Virus record (IMG/VR): IMGVR_UViG_2636415673_000003
Source of the DNA: a virus
Lineage: Duplodnaviria > Heunggongvirae > Uroviricota > Caudoviricetes
DNA: 26,193 nucleotides
Strand: one strand, 5' to 3'
How positions within the stretch are numbered: the stretch's first letter is position 1; the number at the start of each line of letters is the position of its first letter. Below are positions 1 through 24,641 of the stretch, in pieces. Position numbers and translations under genes: made by a program. The notes under the pieces are model-generated. The model worked only from the letters and a program-made list of their open reading frames with translations. It was not told the DNA's origin and searched no databases.

Positions 1-875
<875 letters not shown>

Positions 876-877
876 AA

Positions 878-2188
878 TTAAATCCGAAGTGATGTGACTC
901 TTCCGGTCGGTTTGACAATAGGGAATTGCTTAACGATGAAATAACCTCCGGCATCATTCGGGTGATCATTGCCAGATTTTTTATCAGGCTCCCCCTTCTC
1001 ATCCCAGACCTGTTGCTCCAGAGATTCGGCATATAACGGGCAACGCTTCACATTAACTTTATAGCGACGCTCACCATTGGCATTGCAGAACATTGCATTC
1101 ATTGAGTTAACGCGATCTTTTACTGGCGGGTTCGAGCTGTTCACCACAACGTTAAAACCAGCCTGCTTAAGCTGGGCTATATCCGTCGTACTTGCGTTAC
1201 TTGATTTTCTGGAATCCCCGGAAGCATCTGGATAAATATAAATTTCCCTCACTTTCCGGTAATCATTCCCATCATACAGCCAGAAGCGTTCTTTAATGAT
1301 GCGGATCATATCCGGCGTATCGTAGGCATTGATGATTTCAGTTACCGCACATGGAAGCCCCAAACGCAGCACATGGACGATTCCCGCCATCTTTCCAACG
1401 TTAAAATCCATCCCAATATAAATCGGCTCCCCTGGCTGCTCCACTTCTTCGCAATTATTCAGTTTCCGGTCAAACTGATGGTAAACAGTACCACTTGTCA
1501 GGTTAGTAAACTGTCCTCGAAGATAGGCTTTAATCAGCTCTGGAGGGTATGATTCAAGAAGCGAAGGAATGTAATCTGCTGGCAGGTTCTTTTCATTATC
1601 GAAAGTAGATGCCTGCACCAGACCATACAGTGAGGCCAGCTCTGTTTTTTCACGCACGGCTTTAACAAACTGCTCGTAGACAAATTTGAATCCTTCCGGC
1701 GTGGTTGTAACGTCAATACCGTTGCGAAGTCCATCAATCTTATAACGCATACGTGCAATTATCTTGCGCCACGCCGTTCTGGCTTTTTCCTTCGGCAAAA
1801 TGTCCAGTTCATCCACCAACGCATTACCAATTTTGAAACCGACGATCGTTTGTGGCTTCTCCATCGATCTGCAGATAGTGGTTCCCCGATACTGGCGTCC
1901 GTAATAAAAGTGAACCTCTTTATTTCCCTCATTAATTTTTACGTTCAATCCCCAGTCAGCAGCAACTTCTTCCACTGTAGGGTAAAAAATATCGCGAATT
2001 TGGGGATACGTTGGCGCAAAATATCCCTGATTTATACCTGGATGCTCCCAAATCCCCTTGCATATGCCGCCACACCCAACCCATGTTTTGCCCGAGCCAA
2101 AACCAGCAATATAGGCTTTAAATTTATGGGGCATTGAAAGAAATCGCGCCTGAGGCACATTAAGCGTCGGAGAGATCATCTTCATCAC
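878..2188 (-). CDS. Terminase large subunit (ATPase/nuclease)
   Basis: 436 aa ORF with an N-terminal Walker A P-loop (GFGSGKT); sits between the small terminase and portal genes. Start could be an internal Met (MPHKF, near 2134). Confidence 0.85.
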   Translation of the reverse strand: MMKMISPTLNVPQARFLSMPHKFKAYIAGFGSGKTWVGCGGICKGIWEHPGINQGYFAPTYPQIRDIFYPTVEEVAADWGLNVKINEGNKEVHFYYGRQYRGTTICRSMEKPQTIVGFKIGNALVDELDILPKEKARTAWRKIIARMRYKIDGLRNGIDVTTTPEGFKFVYEQFVKAVREKTELASLYGLVQASTFDNEKNLPADYIPSLLESYPPELIKAYLRGQFTNLTSGTVYHQFDRKLNNCEEVEQPGEPIYIGMDFNVGKMAGIVHVLRLGLPCAVTEIINAYDTPDMIRIIKERFWLYDGNDYRKVREIYIYPDASGDSRKSSNASTTDIAQLKQAGFNVVVNSSNPPVKDRVNSMNAMFCNANGERRYKVNVKRCPLYAESLEQQVWDEKGEPDKKSGNDHPNDAGGYFIVKQFPIVKPTGRVTSLRI

Positions 2189-3254
2189 TCCTTACTCTGG
2201 CATCAACCACATTAATATTGATCGCCACAGGCTGGGGATGTTCATTATCTTCCACCGTTTCGATCTCTTTGCGCAGCTTCTGGTTTTCCATTCTGCGCCG
2301 TTCAATTTCCAGTTCCTGTAGCCGCTTATCTGCACATAAAGCCCCGCCAGCAGAAAGCAAACGCAACAATTCACGCCGGGCGGCAGCCTTATCCTCCAGC
2401 AGGATCTCAACGCCGAATTTTCCGAATTTTGCCCCTGCATATAATTGCCGCGCATCCCCATCAAGCAGAGTGGTATCAGCCATATAAAGCTGTCCCGTTC
2501 CCTCACCGCAGCACTTCGGGCAGTCCGGATTGGGTATGGCGTTATCAACAAAGCCGAGGCCTCCATATTCCGGTTCGGGTTTGCCATCTCTGGAAGCCTG
2601 CGCCGCTGCCTTGTCGAATTCTGCTATATCGCGCCACTGGTAGAGATGATTCTCGCCCCAGCAATAACGGCAGTTAACACGGCGAAATTGTGCAAGCTGA
2701 TTGGGGTCGGCCAGGACAATGGCCATCAACTGACTCACTAGTAAATCCAGGTCTGCGGAATAGCGTTTCTGGTACTGATTGCGGAAGTAGCTGATAGCGC
2801 GAAAAACCCTGGCATTTCTAAGCATACGACTGGCGTTGCTATTAGCTGTCGCACCTTGCCCCTCATAACCGGCTAGTCGGTACGCCTCTGTCGGCTTTTT
2901 ACCCTGAGCAACAAGCATCGCAAACTTAGCCTGCTGGTCAGAAATGCCGAATTCATCGGGACAGAACGAAAATTCCTCCGCGTCGCCCTCATTCAGGCCC
3001 GCATCGAATACTGGCTTTTTTTCCTGAGATTTTTCGTTCCGCTTTTGTGCAGTCTGCGCAGATTTTTTCTGCGCACTTTTTTGCGCAGTTTTGCACATTT
3101 CTGTCTGCGCATTTTTCGGAGTTTTTTTGATGTAACGACGGGCTGTTGCGTAATTCAGTCCCCTTGCTTCACACCATGCCACCGGAGATATACCGGAGCG
3201 GGTGTATTCAGCAATATACTCCTGCTGCAACGCCCCCCAGTCCGGTCTGCTCAT
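2160..3254 (-). CDS. Terminase small subunit
   Basis: 364 aa ORF with an N-terminal HTH-like region and a FAMLVAQGKKPTEAYRLAGY motif typical of phage small terminases; its 3' end overlaps the TerL start. Confidence 0.75.
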   Translation of the reverse strand: MSRPDWGALQQEYIAEYTRSGISPVAWCEARGLNYATARRYIKKTPKNAQTEMCKTAQKSAQKKSAQTAQKRNEKSQEKKPVFDAGLNEGDAEEFSFCPDEFGISDQQAKFAMLVAQGKKPTEAYRLAGYEGQGATANSNASRMLRNARVFRAISYFRNQYQKRYSADLDLLVSQLMAIVLADPNQLAQFRRVNCRYCWGENHLYQWRDIAEFDKAAAQASRDGKPEPEYGGLGFVDNAIPNPDCPKCCGEGTGQLYMADTTLLDGDARQLYAGAKFGKFGVEILLEDKAAARRELLRLLSAGGALCADKRLQELEIERRRMENQKLRKEIETVEDNEHPQPVAININVVDARVRSDEDDLSDA

Positions 3255-3257
3255 CAG

Positions 3258-3509
3258 TTAGTCCTGATTTTTATCCACCCTGAGTAGTTCGCGCAGAGCA
3301 AAGGCATCCCCTTTTCTGGCAAGCTTAAACAATGCCGCTCGTAACTCGGCTTCACCTTTCGCTCTGCCCTTACGGATGGCCGCATAAAAATCTGTCATTG
3401 CTTCCCGATTTTCTTTCAGTCGGTTCAGATCAACATCCAGAACGTCAGCGATTTGTTGTGCAGTCATCCGGCACGCTGCCAGAGACTCGACTTTCGAATA
3501 CGGAATCAT
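3258..3509 (-). CDS. Small basic hypothetical protein (about 69-83 aa) upstream of the terminase; start probably internal
   Basis: ORF directly upstream of TerS; helical, Lys/Arg-rich. Its 5' end overlaps the preceding gene by 65 nt if the first ATG is used. Confidence 0.4.
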   Translation of the reverse strand: MIPYSKVESLAACRMTAQQIADVLDVDLNRLKENREAMTDFYAAIRKGRAKGEAELRAALFKLARKGDAFALRELLRVDKNQD

Positions 3510-4398
3510 TTGTCACCCCCATTGATATGCAGGGTGTCTTCTTCCTGTATTTTTCGTGAAGGATTTTTACTGCAGCGTTGTTCCAGGTGACCTGATGGTG
3601 AATGCGTTTATGGCTGGCACCCATCAGTGAGATTTTTACGCACGACGGCGCATACATGACGGAGTAAAAACTTTTAACGTAGGTTCCGGAATCCAGATAC
3701 AGCTCGGTCATTCCGCCGCTGTTTTTCTGCGTCTGTTTCTGCCCTAACTGGACAGCACCGATCGTCATAAACAATTCACCACAGCGACCGAGATTCGTGT
3801 ACGTATTCACATCCTCGTTAATGCGCCCCATGAATGAGAACGGTCGATCAACCGAACAGATAAAGCTGTTCATTGCCTTGCGTTTCACCCACGAAGCATG
3901 GCCGCCATTGTCACCAAGAAAATCCCCGCCCTGCGACATAGCGATGGAAAGAGCAGGTATTGATTCGTAGTACGCCAGCATTTCAGAAAGGATCGCATCC
4001 AGTTTCCTTATCGGAAAATAGGCCTGGTCATAGTTGCGATCCACCCGAAACTGGAACTCGTGATAATCATCATCGAGCTGAATGAAGTATTTACACCCGA
4101 CCAGTTTTGCCAGGTCGAAACAGGCATTACGGGCGTAAAAAATTGAGCGGCGGTCACAGAAATTATCGGCTTCGTCAAAACGACTGGCGATATCGGCTTT
4201 GGAAAACACCAGCACCTGTTCACCAAATTCAGCCATGTACTGATGCCGTGTCTTATCTTCATCATCAACAACGATAAAAATTTTCCCGGTATAGCCAGCA
4301 CGACGCAACGTCCGGTAAGTCAGAACTTTGTCCGGTCGCCCGTGAGTCAGAATAAAGGCGCAAAAATCATCACGCATATTCCTCCTCCTCACCACCAT
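3445..4398 (-). CDS. Hypothetical protein, possibly a GT-A-fold nucleotide-sugar transferase
   Basis: 317 aa ORF. N-terminal CAFILTHGRP...IFIVVDDEDK followed about 65 residues later by QLDDDY resembles the GT-A beta-strand/DxD arrangement. Lacks methyltransferase (FxGxG, D/NPPY) and PAPS-reductase (SGGxDS) motifs. Likely start at MRDDF (4377), coupled to the upstream ParB-like gene. Confidence 0.5.
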   Translation of the reverse strand: MVVRRRNMRDDFCAFILTHGRPDKVLTYRTLRRAGYTGKIFIVVDDEDKTRHQYMAEFGEQVLVFSKADIASRFDEADNFCDRRSIFYARNACFDLAKLVGCKYFIQLDDDYHEFQFRVDRNYDQAYFPIRKLDAILSEMLAYYESIPALSIAMSQGGDFLGDNGGHASWVKRKAMNSFICSVDRPFSFMGRINEDVNTYTNLGRCGELFMTIGAVQLGQKQTQKNSGGMTELYLDSGTYVKSFYSVMYAPSCVKISLMGASHKRIHHQVTWNNAAVKILHEKYRKKTPCISMGVTNDSVFESRVSGSVPDDCTTNR

Positions 4399-5161
4399 GC
4401 ATGATCTCCACCATGCGCTGCGTCATCCGGACAAATCCATTTTCAATAGCCTGCTGATAATCAATGATCACCAGCGCCGACTCCTCGAAAAAACACTGAA
4501 TTTCAGAGGGGGCGTGAGCGTAATAGTCCGCAATTCTGCTGAAATTAAACACCGTGTGACGTTCTGCCGCACACAGGAGGAATTTCTCAATATCAGGCTC
4601 AAGGGACGCCGAACGTATCCGGCTGATCAGCTCCTGAGTTTTCGTATCGTCGTACAGTTCACTGATATCCGGTTTACCGCCCGACGGCTCATAAACAGGC
4701 GTATCAATTTTCGTCGTATACGGCTCCTCCTCATTTCCTGTACCGGGCAAAACATCCGTCAACAGTTCATCAATTTCTGTCGGGATGAAGCCTGTCAGGG
4801 AGACATCAAAATCAGCATTGATTAGGTCCGACAGCTCCATCCGCAACAGATCTTCATCCCAGCCAGCATTCATCGGCAGGCGATTATCTGCCAGGCGGTA
4901 CGCCTTTTTCTGCTCATCCGTCAGGCCAGACAGAACAATGACCGGAACAGAATCCATTTTGAGCATTTCAGCCGCCATAACACGACCGTGACCCGCAATA
5001 ATTTCGCCCTTTTCGTCAATCAGCACCGGATTAGTCCAGCCGAATTGCTTAATACTTTCTACCAGTTGTGCCACCTGCTCAGTACTGTGCGTCCTGGCGT
5101 TGTGCGCATACGGTGACAATTCTTGTAATGGGCGATAGACTATCTTTAATTTCTCGCTCAT
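4370..5161 (-). CDS. ParB-like nuclease domain (ParB/Srx fold) protein
   Basis: 263 aa ORF with a ParB N-terminal-domain-like box (VLIDEKGEIIAGHGRVMAA) and an acidic C-terminus; 3' end overlaps the next gene. Confidence 0.7.
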   Translation of the reverse strand: MSEKLKIVYRPLQELSPYAHNARTHSTEQVAQLVESIKQFGWTNPVLIDEKGEIIAGHGRVMAAEMLKMDSVPVIVLSGLTDEQKKAYRLADNRLPMNAGWDEDLLRMELSDLINADFDVSLTGFIPTEIDELLTDVLPGTGNEEEPYTTKIDTPVYEPSGGKPDISELYDDTKTQELISRIRSASLEPDIEKFLLCAAERHTVFNFSRIADYYAHAPSEIQCFFEESALVIIDYQQAIENGFVRMTQRMVEIMHGGEEEEYA

Positions 5162-5175
5162 ACAGCCTTGCTTTA

Positions 5176-5212
5176 TGAATAAAACGCACCCCAGCAGCCA
5201 GTGCTACTGGGG
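5176..5212 (-). terminator. Putative Rho-independent terminator downstream of trkG
   Basis: On the minus strand, an imperfect 9-bp stem (CCCCAGTAG...CTGCTGGGG) followed by TGCGTTTTATT. Confidence 0.4.
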
Positions 5213-5298: not shown

Positions 5299-6774
5299 TT
5301 AGGAGCGCCAAAAAAAACCTGAAAACAATATAATAACAGGATAAATTTCAAGGCGACCAAGAATCATAGCTATGCACATTAAACATTTTGCAATGTCATT
5401 AAGCACTCCGAATGACGATGCAGTAGCCCCAAAACCTAATCCCATATTATTAATACATGCAGCCACTGTTGCAAATGATGTAAGAAAATCATATCCCATA
5501 CCATTTAACACCAGTATAAAAAACACCGTGAAGAGAGTATAAAGAAAAAAGAAACTCCATACAGACCTCATTACACGATCTGTAACTATCTTCCCTCCTA
5601 CATTTACACTCAACAACGCTCTGGGATGAGAAAGCTGATTTATCTCGTGTTTGCTTTGTTTGAAAAGTATAAGAAATCGAAGTGACTTAATTCCACCACA
5701 AGTTGAACCTATACATCCCCCAAAGAAACTTGACAACAGCAAAAACACTATCGTGTGCGTGGGCCAACTTGCATAATCCTGCGTAGCTAAACCATTATCA
5801 GTGAGCATGGAGCTGGCAAGAAAAAACGAATGAATAAAACTTCCATGCAAGTCATACATACCTATATGCCAGACCTGGAAAGAGGTAACAATGATCACCC
5901 CTAAGGCTATTAACAGAAAGAAACGAAGTTCAATATCTCTGATTAAAGGTTTTATCGTTTTCCTGCTAATAACAATATACCAAAGAGTGAAGTTGAAAGC
6001 CGATAGCAGGGAAAAAGAACCAGCCACCAGCTCAACCAAATAGTTATTAAAATATCCGATACTCTCGCTATGAGTTGAGAAACCACCAAGCGAAACTGTG
6101 GAAATCCCGTGACAAATAGCATCAAACAAAGGCATTCCTGCAAGTCTATAACAGACAATACAAGCAATACCTAATAAAGAATAAGTTATCCACAGTGTCC
6201 GTGACGTATCGGCCAGGCGGGGAGTGAGTTTGTCATCCTTAAATGGCCCCGGCATTTCTGACTGATAAAGCTTTGCACCACCAATACCCAATAATGGCAA
6301 TACAGCAACCGCCAGAACAATAACTCCTAAACCACCTATAAAATTTAACTGTGACCGATAGTACAAATATGCCCGAGGTAATGAACTAACATCATCAATT
6401 ACAGTTGCTCCTGTTGTTGTTATTCCAGAAACCCCTTCAAACAGAGCATCAATGAACGTTAAATTAAGTTCTGAGTCAATCCATAAAGGGAATGCACTAA
6501 TAACAGAAAACAAAATCCAAAACATTACAATTATAATAAACCCATCACGGGTACGTAATTGAATGCCAGATTTCTTAGTTGTATACCACGCTCCGCCACC
6601 AATGCAAAAAAATATAACGAAAGTTATAAAGAAAACGAACAGGCTTTTTTCTTTATAAAACAATGCTACAACCATTGGTGGCAACATTGAAAGACTATAG
6701 AGCCAAACCAGGAACCCACACATATGAGTAACAACTCTTACATGAGATGTATTCATATCTAAATATTCTTTCAA
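5299..6774 (-). CDS. trkG: TrkG, Trk-system K+ uptake membrane protein (prophage cargo gene)
   Basis: 491 aa polytopic membrane protein of the TrkH/TrkG family; AT-rich; positioned just past Rz/Rz1, as I recall for trkG in K-12 Rac. Confidence 0.9.
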   Translation of the reverse strand: MKEYLDMNTSHVRVVTHMCGFLVWLYSLSMLPPMVVALFYKEKSLFVFFITFVIFFCIGGGAWYTTKKSGIQLRTRDGFIIIVMFWILFSVISAFPLWIDSELNLTFIDALFEGVSGITTTGATVIDDVSSLPRAYLYYRSQLNFIGGLGVIVLAVAVLPLLGIGGAKLYQSEMPGPFKDDKLTPRLADTSRTLWITYSLLGIACIVCYRLAGMPLFDAICHGISTVSLGGFSTHSESIGYFNNYLVELVAGSFSLLSAFNFTLWYIVISRKTIKPLIRDIELRFFLLIALGVIIVTSFQVWHIGMYDLHGSFIHSFFLASSMLTDNGLATQDYASWPTHTIVFLLLSSFFGGCIGSTCGGIKSLRFLILFKQSKHEINQLSHPRALLSVNVGGKIVTDRVMRSVWSFFFLYTLFTVFFILVLNGMGYDFLTSFATVAACINNMGLGFGATASSFGVLNDIAKCLMCIAMILGRLEIYPVIILFSGFFWRS

Positions 6775-7358: not shown

Positions 7359-7831
7359 ACCTCAATCTCTCTGACCGTTCCGCCAGCTTCTTTGAATTTT
7401 GCAATCAGACTGTCAGCCTTATGCTCGAACTGACCATAACCAGCGCCCGGCAGTGAAGCCCATATATTGCTGCAACGGTCGATAGCCTGACGGATATCAC
7501 CGCGATCAATCATCGGCAAAGCGCCACGCTCTTTAATCTGCTGCAGCGCTACAGCATCCTGACTTTCTGGAGAAAAATCTTTCAGGCCAAGTTGCTTGCG
7601 GTAGGCATCCCACCAGCGTGAAAGAAGCTGGTAACGTCCAGCGGCTGTTGATTTGAGTTTCGGATTTAGCGTGACAAGTTTGCGGGGGTGATCGGAGTAA
7701 TCAGTGAACAGTTCGCCACCGACAATAACATCATAACCGTGATTTCTGGTTTTCTGCCGTCCGTTATCTGTTCCTTCTGACCATGCCACCATATCAAGGA
7801 AAGCTTTACGCTGGGAATTAAGTGTCTGCAT
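7355..7831 (-). CDS. Endolysin, lambda R-like lytic transglycosylase
   Basis: 158 aa ORF nearly collinear with lambda R as I recall it ([57 protein letters not shown]...). Confidence 0.9.
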
Positions 7832-7834
7832 TAA

Positions 7835-8176
7835 TTACTCCTTATGGGCACCGAACTTGTTACCGATGACCCTCATTGCCGCACCACGAATAGCATCAAC
7901 ACCAATCAGCCCCACCCCACCACCAATGGCAACAGAAAGTGATTTAGGCCATCCGACATACTCAAGCGCGGATGCAAAGGTCAGCGTCAGAGCACCACAA
8001 AGCAGAATCTCAAGCGTTTTTCGTTTCCAGCCGCCGCCACCGCCAAAATAGGCAATGCGCAAACCAGCCATAATAATTGACATAACCACTGCACCCAGCG
8101 GCGTATCTCCACGCCACCAACTTTGTAAGAGTTCCAGTAAGTCAGGCCAGGAATGAGGGGCATTGTGCATTTTCAT
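7835..8176 (-). CDS. Holin with dual-start motif (Met-Lys-Met: antiholin/holin)
   Basis: ORF directly upstream of the endolysin with predicted TM segments and a charged C-terminus. GGAGG sits 8 nt upstream of ATG-AAA-ATG, the lambda S-type dual start. Confidence 0.75.
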   Translation of the reverse strand: MKMHNAPHSWPDLLELLQSWWRGDTPLGAVVMSIIMAGLRIAYFGGGGGWKRKTLEILLCGALTLTFASALEYVGWPKSLSVAIGGGVGLIGVDAIRGAAMRVIGNKFGAHKE

Positions 8177-8269
8177 AAGCCTCACCTCCGAGAGTTCGGA
8201 TGGTGCTAAGTGTAAGATTCAGGCTCTCAGGCTTGCTAACAAGAAGTCGAGGATGTTTCCAGAGCCTAA

Positions 8270-8393: not shown

Positions 8394-8555
8394 ATGTCTG
8401 AAAAAAACAAACCACAAGGTGAAAATAAACCTCAGCAACCCGTGGCACCAAAACCAACTCCAACACAAAGTACTACAGACTTTGCTACACGTCGTGTTTT
8501 TGTTGGAGATTCTGCCGACTCAGTCATTGAACATATAAAAAAACAGCCGAGATAA
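8394..8555 (+). CDS. Small hypothetical protein (53 aa), convergent with and overlapping the 3' end of the membrane-protein gene
   Basis: ATG at 8394 preceded by AAGAGG (8382-8387). The N-terminal half is Pro/Gln/Lys-rich and looks disordered. A strong hairpin follows the stop. Confidence 0.45.
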   Translation: MSEKNKPQGENKPQQPVAPKPTPTQSTTDFATRRVFVGDSADSVIEHIKKQPR

Positions 8556-9093
8556 ACATCGCCGCTACCGGAGCAAGGATGGTATACATCCTTGCTTTAT
8601 CGAGACTCGTGCGGATTTTCTCATTTTCCAACAGTAACTCTCTTGCTGTATCACTCAAGTCAACAAGGCGATACCTTCGTATAAGCGGCAATAACTTATC
8701 AGGTCCTAAATATCCTGCATCAGCGAATATTTTAAAGCTCGAGGGCTCCATATCCTTATATTTTTCATGATATATATGATCAGGAGGGGCATTGATCAGG
8801 CCCCTAACCTTCACAGATAAACCAGTACATACCAAGTAAATGGCGCACCATGTCCATAGTAATGTAAATGTGGTAATTCCGGCGGTGAGAAAATCGAAAT
8901 TAGTTTTCTGTGTCAGCAATAAAAAAGATGAACCAATTCCAACAATCTGAATGTTCAGAAGTTTGTATCCATTCTCAACATTGGTTTTGTTAGAAAGATG
9001 AATCTCTCGTATCGTCTCTTCCCCTTGTTTTTCAAGATAATCGACGAGCTCATCATCTACTCCTAAAAAATAATCTTTAGGTAGTTCTCTCAT
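8524..9093 (-). CDS. Cargo membrane protein (189 aa, ~3 TM segments) between Q/tR' and the lysis cassette; function unknown
   Basis: AT-rich ORF with GGAGG 4 nt upstream of the ATG. Soluble N-terminal ~45 aa, two central hydrophobic segments, and a C-terminal hydrophobic tail. Occupies the position stx or nmpC take in other lambdoid phages. Confidence 0.65.
   Translation of the reverse strand: MRELPKDYFLGVDDELVDYLEKQGEETIREIHLSNKTNVENGYKLLNIQIVGIGSSFLLLTQKTNFDFLTAGITTFTLLWTWCAIYLVCTGLSVKVRGLINAPPDHIYHEKYKDMEPSSFKIFADAGYLGPDKLLPLIRRYRLVDLSDTARELLLENEKIRTSLDKARMYTILAPVAAMFISAVFLYVQ
8572..8600 (+). terminator. Putative terminator of the small '+' gene
   Basis: Perfect 10-bp stem (AGCAAGGATG/CATCCTTGCT) with a 5-nt loop, then TTTATC; lies inside the 3' coding region of the minus-strand gene. 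Confidence 0.4.
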
Positions 9094-12034: not shown

Positions 12035-12160
12035 TCAGAGCCTCCGTCTGCCAGTTCGGATTCGTACCTCGCAGAGGTCTTTCCTCGTTACCAGTGCCGT
12101 CACTATGACGGTTAAACAGATGACGATCAGGGCGATTAACATCGCCTTTTGCTGCTTCAT
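12035..12160 (-). CDS. hok: Hok-family type I toxin with truncated/divergent C-terminus (41 aa)
   Basis: MKQQKAMLIALIVICLTVIVTALVTRKDLCEVRIRTG matches the HokD/RelF N-terminus as recalled, then ends RRRL-stop instead of the usual ~15 further residues. A short upstream ORF ends in ATGA overlapping the hok start (mok-like coupling). Confidence 0.75.
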   Translation of the reverse strand: MKQQKAMLIALIVICLTVIVTALVTRKDLCEVRIRTGRRRL

Positions 12161-12330
12161 AGCCTGCTTCTCCTTGACCTTTCGGTCCGTAAGAGGCTAA
12201 TCTCTATGTGTCGCATAGATATGGCCTCAGATTAATGTTAAACGTCTTGCAGGACGCGTAATGTTAACTGGGGCTTTTCTCTATCTACCTTTGGTGTTCA
12301 TGCCCGAGGCAGATAGCCTCAAGCACCCAC
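12161..12330. promoter_or_regulatory. hok mRNA leader / mok-like frame / expected Sok antisense RNA region
   Basis: By analogy with hok/sok loci, Sok is encoded antisense to the hok leader; the exact promoter and terminator were not resolved by eye. Confidence 0.35.
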
Positions 12331-13496: not shown

Positions 13497-13580
13497 TCAA
13501 CCCCAGCGGCAAATCGAATACACCACCAGCGCCACCGCCATCGCAATTCCTACCGTTGTGAATGCTTCAGGCCAGGTCAT
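13497..13580 (-). CDS. Small hydrophobic peptide (27 aa), translationally coupled to the upstream gene
   Basis: ATG overlaps the TGA of the 167-aa gene (ATGA), with GGAGG 9 nt upstream. MTWPEAFTTVGIAMAVALVVYSICRWG is a single-TM-like peptide. Confidence 0.35.
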   Translation of the reverse strand: MTWPEAFTTVGIAMAVALVVYSICRWG

Positions 13581-14080
13581 CGTAAAACATCCTCCACGCT
13601 TATAAGTCCGCTTCGCTCCAGGTAGTCCATCACTTTATCCGGCAATTTGCAGCCCGGTTTCGGTTTCTTCAGTTGACTAACCAATTGTTTAACCAGCATT
13701 GTCAATTCGCGAACTTGTTTCCCGGGCTCCCCTTTGCCCTGAAGCAGGGCAGCGCGGCAAGCGTTCCATCCCTCAGCATATGTTTCAGTTACACCATCGA
13801 GATGGCATGTAAGCAAATCCATTTCTTCCGGCACTACGGGCGCTGGAAAAACGGCATAGGGTGGCGTCCATTTTGGCGCTTTATCTCCAGCCGAACGCTG
13901 ATACCAGTCATCCGGTTTGTATTCATAAAAATCACCAACTGGCTCTGCTTCCAGCGATGCCAGAGCAATTTTGAATAATTCGCCCTCTACCCGTGCCATC
14001 CCTGAATTGGGGTGGCATTTCTCAATCGCTATTTTTAATTTAGCTTCTTCGATTAATTGCTTTTTGGTTAATTCAGTCAT
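13577..14080 (-). CDS. Hypothetical phage protein (167 aa), nin-like region
   Basis: Long ORF in the early-right operon orientation; no recognisable motifs. Confidence 0.55.
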   Translation of the reverse strand: MTELTKKQLIEEAKLKIAIEKCHPNSGMARVEGELFKIALASLEAEPVGDFYEYKPDDWYQRSAGDKAPKWTPPYAVFPAPVVPEEMDLLTCHLDGVTETYAEGWNACRAALLQGKGEPGKQVRELTMLVKQLVSQLKKPKPGCKLPDKVMDYLERSGLISVEDVLR

Positions 14081-24265: not shown

Positions 24266-24460
24266 ATGAGATATGACAATGTTAAACCATGTCCATTTTG
24301 TGGTTGTCCATCAGTAACGGTGAAAGTCATTTCAGGATATTACCGAGCGAAGTGTAACGGATGCGAATCCCGAACCGGTTATGGTGGAAGTGAAAAAGAA
24401 GCACTCGAAAGATGGAATAAACGAACCACTGGAAATAATAACGGAGGTGTTCATGTATAA
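24266..24460 (+). CDS. ralR: RalR (Lar) restriction-alleviation protein / type I toxin DNase
   Basis: MRYDNVKPCPFCGCPSVTVKVISGYYRAKCNGCESRTGYGGSEKEALERWNKR... (64 aa). Confidence 0.9.
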   Translation: MRYDNVKPCPFCGCPSVTVKVISGYYRAKCNGCESRTGYGGSEKEALERWNKRTTGNNNGGVHV

Positions 24461-24641
24461 AATTACCGCCACTATTGAAAAGGAAGGTGGCACTCCTACT
24501 AACTGGACAAGATATTCAAAATCTAAACTAACGAAATCAGAATGCGAAAAAATGCTCTCAGGTAAAAAAGAAGCAGGCGTTTCCAGAGAGCAGAAAGTAA
24601 AACTGATAAATTTTAATTGCGAGAAACTTCAGTCCTCGTGA
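24453..24641 (+). CDS. ydaC: YdaC (DUF1187-type) small protein
   Basis: MYKITATIEKEGGTPTNWTRYSKSKLTKSECEKMLSGKKEAG...; ACGGAGGTG upstream; overlaps the ralR stop. Confidence 0.8.
   Translation: MYKITATIEKEGGTPTNWTRYSKSKLTKSECEKMLSGKKEAGVSREQKVKLINFNCEKLQSS

Follow-up and report, generated by a model that had tools for sequence, protein, structure and literature searches.

What would a glycosyltransferase modify when it is encoded together with a ParB-like protein beside phage packaging genes, and when no enzyme that installs a hydroxyl on DNA lies nearby? This question is raised by two overlapping minus-strand genes of a Rac-like E. coli prophage, with trkG on one side and the terminase genes on the other, in the 26,193-nt stretch of viral DNA that was analysed here as a whole (the window; IMG/VR record IMGVR_UViG_2636415673_000003, Caudoviricetes). 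A sequence-only reading had singled out this pair as a ParB-like protein with a GT-A-like transferase, and had considered DNA hypermodification or defence as possible roles.

Gene order and junction of the pair

The two ORFs match exactly the span 3445–5161 given to them in that reading, and their position between trkG (5299..6774; Pfam TrkH, E 5e-145) and the packaging genes was confirmed by the ORF list and Pfam. The motifs quoted from the translations are present as well, AGHGRV at residues 56–61 of the ParB-like protein and THGRP (18–22), IVVDDED (42–48) and QLDDDY (107–112) in the glycosyltransferase (GT). TerS (2160..3254) and TerL (878..2188) both lie beyond the GT gene and a small ORF of 83 codons. 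The features to which we refer below are:

4370..5161, minus strand: gene for the 263-aa acidic ParB-like partner, the full-length YnaK (ORF list, stop codon included; Pfam ParB_N, PHROG 620)
4757..5161, minus strand: ParB/Srx N-terminal module (ParB_N) of the partner, residues 1–135 (Pfam, PHROG, PADLOC, PDB profile search, alignment)
4682..4723, minus strand: conserved linear motif PYTTKIDTPVYEPS of the partner, residues 147–160, in a predicted disordered linker
4397..4729, minus strand: C-terminal domain (CTD) of the partner, residues about 145–255, the constant GT-specific partner domain, unannotated
4370..4390, minus strand: translational-coupling junction, with the Shine-Dalgarno sequence GAGGAGGAGG at 4381–4390, the GT ATG at 4375–4377 and the ParB stop TGA at 4370–4372
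3445..4377, minus strand: GT-A glycosyltransferase gene, 310 aa from M8 (stop codon included)
3258..3509, minus strand: 83-aa ORF between GT and TerS, context outside the module (PHROG 309 'terminase small subunit', E 8e-23)
5189..5212, minus strand: terminator-like hairpin separating trkG from the ParB-like gene, its 10-bp stem (7 G-C pairs) leading into a T-rich tail (consensus scan only)

The longest GT ORF (3445..4398, minus strand; 317 aa in the ORF list) overlaps the ParB-like gene by 29 nt. When translation begins at M8, the start used by RefSeq, the overlap with the ParB stop shrinks to 8 nt (ATGCGTGA). M8 is probably the real start, since the Shine-Dalgarno sequence and the homologues both point there, and on these same grounds the extra seven N-terminal residues of the longer ORF were rejected. 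At the corresponding junction, HHTV-2, phi jlb1, c5, NTR1, a Porphyromonas phage and the metagenomic loci L001–L005 also have annotated overlaps, of 4–29 nt. At its other end, the last ~25 residues of GT form a non-conserved tail that overlaps the next ORF; the PHROG 309 match of this 83-aa ORF covers an internal segment, and related phages annotate it as hypothetical. The ParB-like and GT genes share their strand with Q and with the lysis and terminase genes, and in a lysogen the predicted hairpin would shield them from transcription of trkG.

The glycosyltransferase and its ParB-like partner

The downstream gene encodes a GT-A glycosyltransferase of the TAGT / base-J-GT / GREB1 family, the presumptive catalytic subunit of the pair. 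The protein matches Pfam TAGT PF20691 at 122.1 bits (cut-off 27.5; E 3.8e-35) over residues 15–229 and PHROG 842 at E 7e-104, and is named 'GREB1-related protein' in UniRef and RefSeq. No sequence homologue was found in the PDB; the top PDB matches returned by Foldseek for the AF2 model are the GT-A enzymes SpsA, WrtF, ColGalT1 and TarS, and its BFVD matches are TAGT-domain proteins. The model has an overall pLDDT of 70, with values that exceed 85 through most of the N-terminal half and drop in the C-terminal half; as confidence is low there and in the CTD of the partner, no fold is claimed for these two regions. The GT-A-like transferase postulated earlier is thereby borne out by family (PF20691) and by predicted fold, the HMM and Foldseek results together assigning the 317-aa protein to the GT-A enzymes, and neither a methyltransferase nor a PAPS-reductase domain was found, in agreement with what had been read from the motifs of this protein.

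Alignments showed R21, D48, D109–D111, N194, D196, T223–Q224, R265 and H267–H268 to be invariant positions; R21, D109–D111 and D196 are so in both GT alignments (30 and 27 sequences) and E195 in the 27-sequence set, and the three motifs picked out in the sequence-only reading turn out to be invariant catalytic positions. Proven phage DNA GT-A enzymes carry an R...DDD...ED(Y/F) site (bioRxiv 10.1101/2023.12.21.572611), which the R / DDD / ED motif of GT matches except for the last position, where (Y/F) is replaced by Val. The C-terminal half is basic (pI 9.5), a composition that would suit nucleic-acid binding. In its TAGT domain (PF20691), GT-A fold and R / DDD / ED motif, GT resembles the TET/5mYOX-associated GT-A DNA glycosyltransferases (Pyle et al. 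2024; Burke et al. 2021), the T2/T6 beta-glucosyl-HMC-alpha-glucosyltransferase and the trypanosome base-J glucosyltransferase, the T-even enzymes being too distant for tblastn at E 1e-5. Those enzymes, however, act on 5hmC, 5hmU or glucosyl-hmC supplied by a TET/JBP enzyme, a hydroxymethylase or a first GT, none of which is found nearby here, and GT differs from them further by its apparently obligate CTD partner and by a conserved ~60-residue extension beyond the Pfam domain (residues 230–290).

The ParB/Srx-fold box noted earlier in the first protein proved to belong to a ParB-type N-domain, identified by Pfam (ParB_N, 29.3 bits against a cut-off of 26.3 and hence marginal), by PHROG (family 620, E 1e-90) and by PDB profile matches to Noc, Spo0J and ParB at E 4e-5 to 2e-3. 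As in the partition proteins Spo0J, Noc and KorB, boxes I–III of the fold are recognisable, and ParB_N aligns to box II of Noc/ParB. In contrast to these proteins, box II reads GHGRVMA instead of GERRxRA: G57 and R60 are kept, His takes the place of the Glu that is catalytic in CTP-hydrolysing ParBs, and Gly that of the first Arg. Across the window protein and 110 representative partners, conservation is at least 90% for N21, G57 and N93 and at least 70% for R60. Again unlike partition ParBs, the partner is strongly acidic (pI 4.5, net charge about -25; pI 4.05 over residues 96–140) and has no HTH domain by Pfam, for which reasons it is unlikely to bind DNA by itself.

Judged by its relatives, ParB_N has a pedigree in DNA modification. 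Residues 3–141 match PHROG 498, a family of ParB-methyltransferase fusions, at E 9e-51; the PADLOC MTase_II model is matched at E 1.5e-38, in its ParB-like N-terminus only; the N-termini of Streptococcus and Gardnerella phage adenine methylases are 45–49% identical by tblastn; and close haloviral ParB_N relatives are fused to C5 or N6/N4 DNA methylases (DNA_methylase, N6_N4_Mtase). The homology to these fusions, which like the window pair are carried by phages and prophages, is confined to the N-terminal 135–140 residues. They continue into a fused, SAM-using catalytic domain, whereas the partner described here continues into a non-catalytic-looking CTD and is accompanied by a separate, coupled GT.

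In its predicted disordered linker, the partner carries a linear motif with the consensus Y-T-x-K-I-x-x-P-x-Y-E-P, whose Y148, P155 and Y157 proved invariant when the Vibrio, Nocardia and metagenomic L091 partners were aligned as well. The AF2 model is confident for ParB_N, falls below pLDDT 50 over residues 136–169 and is of low confidence in the CTD. Pfam searches with the CTD at E up to 10 gave just a sub-threshold match to Phage_Gene47 (E 0.035), profile searches of PDB sequences gave no credible homologue but just spurious designed armadillo repeats, and PHROGs gave its own family 620 alone. The domain was found in 1189 representative clusters; in nearly all of the best 150 it occupies the C-terminal position, and within these 150 no informative fusion was seen, the CTD being joined to ParB_N or to nothing. 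A di-iron or dioxygenase-like role of the CTD was considered and rejected, as matching motifs are absent and the domain is too small. In the partner alignment the CTD is more conserved than ParB_N, and it is the CTD, not the ParB box noted in the earlier reading, that forms the conserved, GT-specific portion of the partner.

Coupling of the C-terminal domain to the glycosyltransferase

Strict coupling between CTD and GT is a new result of the present study. A ParB-like/CTD ORF was present in all 99 GT loci examined, and it lies directly upstream of GT and on the same strand in every locus listed (90 listed; 10 haloviral). In the haloviral set, GT follows directly downstream in 10/10 CTD loci, as opposed to 0/10 loci with ParB_N only. 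In Vibrio phage pv27 and the IMG/VR locus L091, the CTD is all that is left of the partner. In line with these observations, mirror-tree distance correlations gave a rho of 0.82 for CTD–GT versus 0.56 for ParB_N–GT.

The pair is widespread. Of 5426 complete E. coli genomes, 867 (about one in six) contain the 2.2-kb stretch of the locus at ≥80% coverage; an intact Rac-like prophage with the pair is that of ETEC H10407 (NC_017633, 880996–883196). This spread, like the TAGT and PHROG scores of the two proteins, shows that the ORFs are no product of chance. Beyond E. coli, the pair extends to viruses that infect Proteobacteria, Firmicutes, Actinobacteria, Bacteroidota and haloarchaea, and it usually lies beside terminase genes. 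Its carriers include virulent phages (c5; Vibrio phages of 191 kb, with a 45% identical GT) and an archaeal virus. At least three different terminase types adjoin it, and it is found in the cos phage c5 as well as in the headful phage HHTV-2, which ruled out a role specific to cos ends. By tblastn, GT of the E. coli prophage is 39–47% identical to that of phages of Lactobacillus, Nocardia, Vibrio and Haloarcula; as identity is this high across such different viruses, a substrate that is universal across hosts is implied by sequence conservation.

E. coli K-12 retains part of the locus. Of the two Rac fragments named earlier as remnants of the pair, ynaK does come from the ParB-like gene, of which it keeps codons 1–85, and ydaY is unrelated. 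GT is wholly deleted in K-12, where sequence identity to the window stops at coordinate 4908, and ydaY, which shows no similarity to GT, was rejected as its remnant. Papers on ynaK, HHTV-2 and anti-restriction screens yielded nothing on this ParB-like/GT pair.

Candidate substrates of the pair

Every characterised member of the TAGT family, to our knowledge, glycosylates a hydroxyl, be it that of 5hmC, of 5hmU or of a sugar already on DNA, and we know of no phage or trypanosome DNA sugar that does not hang on a hydroxyl first installed by another enzyme. Canonical DNA offers no hydroxyl in its grooves, nor do we know of hydroxymethyl-pyrimidine DNA made by E. coli, Lactobacillus or Haloarcula. 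The family was defined by Iyer et al. in 2013, a study that, according to later papers citing it, reportedly linked ParB to modification at packaging time.

An acceptor-making enzyme was sought at several levels. Pfam detected no TET/JBP, thymidylate-synthase-like, hydroxymethylase or DNA-methylase domain in the main ORFs of the window, and none in the metagenomic loci L001–L005 (annotated over 8 kb on either side). A scan of the complete 31.8-kb phage c5, which took in the likely small terminase and, apart from the structural genes, every annotated hypothetical ORF of at least 88 aa, likewise gave none of them, and Pfam (families with at least two members shown in full) revealed no recurrent hydroxylase in 150 ORFs that neighbour the pair at 29 non-redundant loci. 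With no source of 5hmC or 5hmU at hand here, the standard hypermodification pathway is not supported for this pair. According to recent surveys, most phage GT-A/TAGT genes have no hydroxyl-installing enzyme nearby (~65% of GT contigs in one survey, 288/753 phage genomes in another), and solitary TAGTs or GT-A enzymes were left aside or classed as being of undefined function (PMC13216743; bioRxiv 2023.12.21.572611).

DNA hypermodification, as proposed in the sequence-only reading, is nevertheless the best-supported direction, as those TAGT members whose function is known add sugars to DNA and this type of ParB_N otherwise occurs fused to DNA methyltransferases. We propose, with about even confidence for and against, that the pair is a late-expressed, translationally coupled two-component DNA-glycosylation module that operates without prior base hydroxymethylation. 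According to this model, the acidic ParB-like protein would be an obligate partner of GT in a physical complex, its CTD with the YTxKIxxPxYxP peptide would serve as the GT-specific adaptor, and ParB_N would probably act as a nucleotide-dependent switch or loader that gives GT access to dsDNA. The module would be transcribed together with the lysis and packaging genes, would act on phage DNA once it is replicated, during packaging or shortly before it, and would likely protect the injected DNA from host nucleases. It would need neither a TET/JBP dioxygenase nor a hydroxymethylase, and the sugar acceptor would therefore be neither 5hmC nor 5hmU. Family, fold and catalytic motif of GT, the strict CTD–GT pairing, the DNA-modification pedigree of ParB_N, the missing hydroxylase and the late-operon position all favour this model; the acidity of the partner, its box II devoid of the catalytic Glu, the low-confidence regions of both structural models and the want of a hydroxyl in the grooves of canonical DNA tell against it. 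That the CTD–GT pair places the sugar directly onto a canonical base or the backbone of dsDNA, again without prior hydroxymethylation, is a more specific claim which we regard as possible, if rather doubtful; it would amount to new chemistry.

The role assigned to ParB_N is modelled on the ParB of ParB-dependent thymine dioxygenases. In the 5mYOX176/ParB176 system, the ParB partner was shown experimentally to be needed for action of the thymine dioxygenase on dsDNA (O'Toole et al., PNAS 2026, PMC13229309); both domains of ParB176 matter, and mutants of its NTP site stayed active (PMC13229309). Both systems combine a phage DNA-modifying enzyme family with an adjacent ParB-like gene, often near terminase, and both ParB-like proteins consist of a nucleotide-binding-type N-domain and a C-terminal domain, with no DNA-binding domain (PMC13229309). 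They differ in that the putative enzyme of our pair is a glycosyltransferase with no dioxygenase present, and in that the CTD by itself can be the partner here.

A different reading of the coupling is that GT modifies a protein, either its own partner at an invariant Tyr/Thr of YTxKIxxPxYxP or a packaging or virion protein, with the ParB-like protein as substrate or scaffold. Strict co-occurrence and co-evolution of CTD and GT would fit an enzyme–substrate pair equally well, the motif with its invariant Y148 and Y157 sits in a predicted disordered linker, and the missing-hydroxyl problem would disappear. The eukaryotic relative GREB1 is reported to O-GlcNAcylate a protein (PMC7968844), and the fold matches include the protein-glycosylating GT-A enzymes glycogenin, ColGalT1 (collagen galactosyltransferase) and the SunS/ThuS peptide S-glycosyltransferases. 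Both halves of the pair have a DNA-modification pedigree, however (TAGT on one side, a ParB_N common to DNA methylases on the other); the variety of terminases, in cos and headful phages alike, leaves no constant packaging partner, and no functional reason is apparent for glycosylating the ParB-like protein. We consider a protein substrate unlikely.

It is improbable that GT is a classical TAGT which transfers a sugar onto 5hmC, 5hmU or a glucosylated base supplied by an enzyme whose gene lies elsewhere, in the phage or in its host. The Pfam family name and the PHROG 842 label would be in line with this, and so would the frequent grouping of ParB, GT, 5mYOX and terminase genes in metaviromes (PMC13229309). 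Against it stand the searches of the window, the five annotated loci, c5 and the neighbour ORFs described above, and the hosts named there are not known to make hydroxymethyl-pyrimidine DNA.

Slightly less probable still is some other service to the host or prophage, namely lysogen defence or superinfection exclusion, or glycosylation of an envelope polymer (serotype conversion) with the ParB-like protein engaged in partition or packaging: the pair does adjoin the moron trkG in the prophage, some defence proteins, GmrSD among them, do contain ParB-like domains (PMC12373910), the closest solved folds do include the teichoic-acid GT TarS, and a PDB search with phage GT-A enzymes ranked the prophage enzyme TarP first (Pyle et al., bioRxiv 10.1101/2023.12.21.572611), but 39–47% GT identity spans hosts whose envelopes share nothing, a partition role is at odds with the sub-threshold score against the partition-ParB model of NCBIfam (TIGR00180, 38.1 bits, cut-off 58.45) and with the lack of a ParA-type ATPase among the window ORFs scanned, and the defence module considered earlier is unlikely because GT, like the 83-aa ORF, matches no defence model of PADLOC-DB 2.0, because the pair lies in a Q-dependent late operon behind the terminator-like hairpin that parts it from trkG, and because virulent phages and an archaeal virus carry it.

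What the locus adds is that a large and very conserved part of the orphan GT-A/TAGT genes belongs to an invariable pair of genes, which brings along an unannotated partner domain, is situated at the packaging genes and is independent of any hydroxylase. The system is experimentally tractable in E. coli and in culturable carriers (c5, phi jlb1/phi-adh, HHTV-2 and induced Rac-like phages). If the modified component were the partner protein, the ParB fold would be put to a new use. If it is DNA, the modification would bear on restriction evasion, on host range in phage therapy and on sequencing or cloning artefacts; and should the sugar indeed be placed directly on a canonical base or the backbone, the pair would represent a chemically new class of DNA modification, present in the Rac-like prophages of about one sixth of complete E. 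coli genomes, as well as among viruses that infect Firmicutes, Actinobacteria, Bacteroidota, Vibrio and haloarchaea.

Gene layout of the pair in the Rac-like prophage

The window represents a Rac-like lambdoid prophage of E. coli, with recE/recT, sieB, ydaS/T/U/V, a Q-like antiterminator, holin, lysozyme, Rz and trkG. Beyond trkG, all on the minus strand, follow a 263-aa ORF for a ParB-like protein (the partner), a 317-aa ORF for a glycosyltransferase (GT), an 83-aa ORF, TerS, TerL and the portal gene. The sequence-only reading had located the pair correctly, and all four motifs it quoted were recovered in our ORF calls and translations.

Features around the pair
34..240, plus strand: IS3-family transposase C-terminus
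210..875, minus strand: portal gene, interrupted by the end of the IS3-family element
Minus strand: TerL (Terminase_6N/6C)
Minus strand: TerS (Terminase_2)
3258-3509, minus strand: 83-aa ORF, matching an internal segment of PHROG 309 'terminase small subunit' (E 8e-23)
3445..4398, minus strand: GT gene, 317-aa ORF (ORF call)
4370..5161, minus strand: partner gene, 263-aa ORF (ORF call)
5189-5212: terminator-like hairpin between trkG and the pair
5299-6774: trkG, low-GC moron flanked by the lysis genes on one side and the partner gene on the other

The likeliest GT start is M8 (ATG 4377), since the RefSeq version comprises 310 aa and a Shine-Dalgarno sequence, GAGGAGGAGG, lies upstream of this ATG; GT start and partner stop overlap by 8 nt (ATGCGTGA). 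The 83-aa ORF, which may encode an extra DNA-recognition subunit, shares 65 nt with the sequence for the non-conserved C-terminal tail of the GT and is followed by the full 364-aa TerS. The GC content of trkG is 35-41% versus about 50% in the flanking DNA, and a strong terminator-like hairpin comes after it. Judging from the position of this hairpin, expression of the pair probably depends on Q-antiterminated late transcription. As the portal gene is truncated by the IS3-family element, this prophage copy is unable to make particles. Elsewhere in the window, Rfam matches revealed the RalA antitoxin sRNA of the Rac RalR/RalA system (24459-24637, minus strand; 225 bits) and a sok-type antitoxin RNA (12158-12328, minus strand; 101 bits), the latter pointing to a hok/sok-like toxin locus within the low-GC region at about 11-12.5 kb. 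Two ORFs, one of 189 aa (8524-9093, minus strand) in a low-GC patch adjoining the lysis genes and one of 167 aa (13577-14080, minus strand), had no Pfam match.

In K-12 Rac (NC_000913.3 1425377-1425980), ynaK corresponds to codons 1-85 of the ParB-like gene, after which comes a deletion junction; identity to the window stops at coordinate 4908, and the GT is absent. The idea that K-12 retains fragments of the pair as ynaK and ydaY thus holds for ynaK, but not for ydaY, which lacks similarity to the GT or the remainder of the partner.

Fold and family of the two proteins

Profile and structure-based fold assignment identified the 317-aa protein as a GT-A glycosyltransferase, in line with the GT-A-like transferase that the sequence-only reading had proposed from its motifs. 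It scored 122 bits against Pfam PF20691 (TET-associated glycosyltransferase, TAGT) and E 7e-104 against PHROG 842, and its AlphaFold model (mean pLDDT 70; N-terminal half mostly >85) matches the PDB GT-A enzymes SpsA, WrtF, ColGalT1 and TarS as well as BFVD TAGT-domain proteins; its RefSeq/UniRef name is 'GREB1-related protein'. An alignment extending down to 38% identity shows R21, D48, D109-D111, N194 and D196 to be invariant, and a 27-sequence alignment shows the same for E195. These positions are the counterparts of the R...DDD...ED(Y/F) site in phage GT-A enzymes for which glycosylation of 5hmC in DNA is proven (Pyle et al., bioRxiv 10.1101/2023.12.21.572611). Past the Pfam domain, residues 230-290 form a conserved segment with invariant GTY.KSFY and R.HH, and the C-terminal half is basic (pI 9.5).

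The ParB/Srx-fold box noticed in the partner was confirmed for its N-domain (ParB_N) by Pfam (29.3 bits) and by PDB profile matches to Noc, Spo0J and ParB. In box II, GHGR replaces GERR; the protein falls short of the full partition-ParB model, lacks an HTH and is strongly acidic (pI 4.5, net charge -25). Among 110 representatives from 50%-identity clusters, its C-terminal domain (CTD, residues about 145-255) is conserved far better than ParB_N, with the consensus Y-T-x-K-I-x-x-P-x-Y-E-P ... F-L-x-x-A-A-x-R-H-T-V-F ... I-A-x-x-Y-A-H ... S-A-L-V-I-I-D-F-x-x-A-I-E-x-G. The CTD gave no significant Pfam match, no PDB sequence homologue and, among the best 150 of 1189 representative clusters, no informative fusion partner. 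Its YTxKI peptide sits in a linker predicted to be disordered and looks like a docking peptide or modification site. Family assignments of both proteins are already in databases.

Coupling of CTD and GT across phages

Loci were collected from metagenome contigs, GenBank phages and IMG/VR, the latter queried with the GT and with a haloviral partner. When all ORFs were scanned with HMMs, a ParB-like/CTD ORF turned up in 99 of 99 GT-bearing loci; in every locus listed (sets of 90 and 10), it is the immediate upstream neighbour on the same strand and overlaps or abuts the GT ORF. In the IMG/VR set from the haloviral partner query, the GT is directly downstream in 10/10 CTD-bearing loci, but is present in 0/10 loci with ParB_N and without CTD; half of the ParB_N-only proteins scanned (4/8) are fused to C5 or N6/N4 DNA methylases. 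Distances correlate with those of the GT at rho 0.82 for the CTD versus 0.56 for ParB_N, and CTD-only partners of about 140 aa each occur in Vibrio phage pv27 and an IMG/VR locus (L091). The conserved unit is CTD plus GT. On one haloviral contig (L097), a second, ParB_N-only gene (7638-8237; 200 aa) comes right after the GT, giving the order ParB_N-CTD, GT, ParB_N.

Relatives of the GT occur at 39-47% identity in Lactobacillus phages c5 and phi jlb1, Nocardia phage NTR1, 191-kb Vibrio phages and haloarchaeal virus HHTV-2, and at 27% in a Porphyromonas phage. Most of these viruses carry the pair immediately upstream of their terminase genes, irrespective of terminase type. In c5 it forms the first two genes past cos. 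HHTV-2 uses headful packaging, and its pair is separated by about 3 kb from TerL downstream. The 2.2-kb stretch is found at a coverage of at least 80% in 867 of 5426 complete E. coli genomes, an identical GT is present in phage records, and virulent phages carry the pair. Families recurrent near the pair (at least two members in a set of 150 mid-size neighbour ORFs drawn from 29 non-redundant loci) were terminase, Mu-F, capsid, Q and DUF1367. Mu-F-like domains recur at the post-portal position in this screen; in the intact relative Escherichia phage vB_EcoS-683R6, the post-portal gene (8914-8951) is annotated as NAD+--asparagine ADP-ribosyltransferase.

Possible substrates of the pair

Characterised members of the GT's family glycosylate DNA, and the partner's ParB_N type forms the N-terminal part of phage DNA methyltransferases. 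A ParB-like protein which, like the present partner, combines an N-domain and a C-domain without a DNA-binding domain activates a phage thymine dioxygenase towards dsDNA (PMC13229309). Moreover, the very high conservation of the GT from archaeal to Gram-positive hosts implies a universal substrate. The basic C-terminal half of the GT could supply DNA binding, with the acidic partner regulating or positioning the GT. On these grounds DNA glycosylation is favoured, and we give an even chance to the pair being a late, packaging-coupled DNA glycosylation module whose acceptor is not hydroxymethyl.

The main rival, which we regard as rather unlikely, is that the GT glycosylates a protein, the simplest target being an invariant Tyr or Thr of the partner. 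The classical TAGT role, on a hydroxymethyl base produced elsewhere, is less likely still and appears improbable: searches for TET/JBP, thymidylate-synthase-like and DNA-methylase domains came up empty in the window's main ORFs, in five Pfam-annotated loci (8 kb either side) and in the complete 31.8-kb c5 genome, where the scan took in all annotated hypothetical ORFs of at least 88 aa outside structural genes as well as the likely small terminase, and the families recurrent in the neighbour-ORF screen included none of these domains. This leaves the usual TAGT substrates unavailable. In RefSeq (c5, phi jlb1, HHTV-2) and GenBank (Vibrio and Porphyromonas phages) the GT bears the label 'beta-glucosyl-HMC-alpha-glucosyltransferase', apparently inherited from PHROG 842; the phages concerned have no annotated route to hydroxymethylcytosine (HMC), and for phages that lack HMC the label is probably incorrect. 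As to the hypermodification cassette or defence module initially proposed, the DNA-modification pedigree of both halves speaks for the former, whereas a defence or envelope role, likewise less likely than a protein target, is very improbable given a GT without PADLOC hit, genes belonging to the late operon and carriage by virulent phages.

Many solitary GT-A/TAGT genes of undefined function have been noted in two 2023-2026 papers (bioRxiv 10.1101/2023.12.21.572611; PMC13216743), and our literature search found no paper on the obligate CTD partner, CTD-only variants or hydroxylase independence. Within the favoured reading of DNA glycosylation, we tentatively consider that the sugar might be put directly on canonical DNA; if true, this would constitute a new class of DNA modification.
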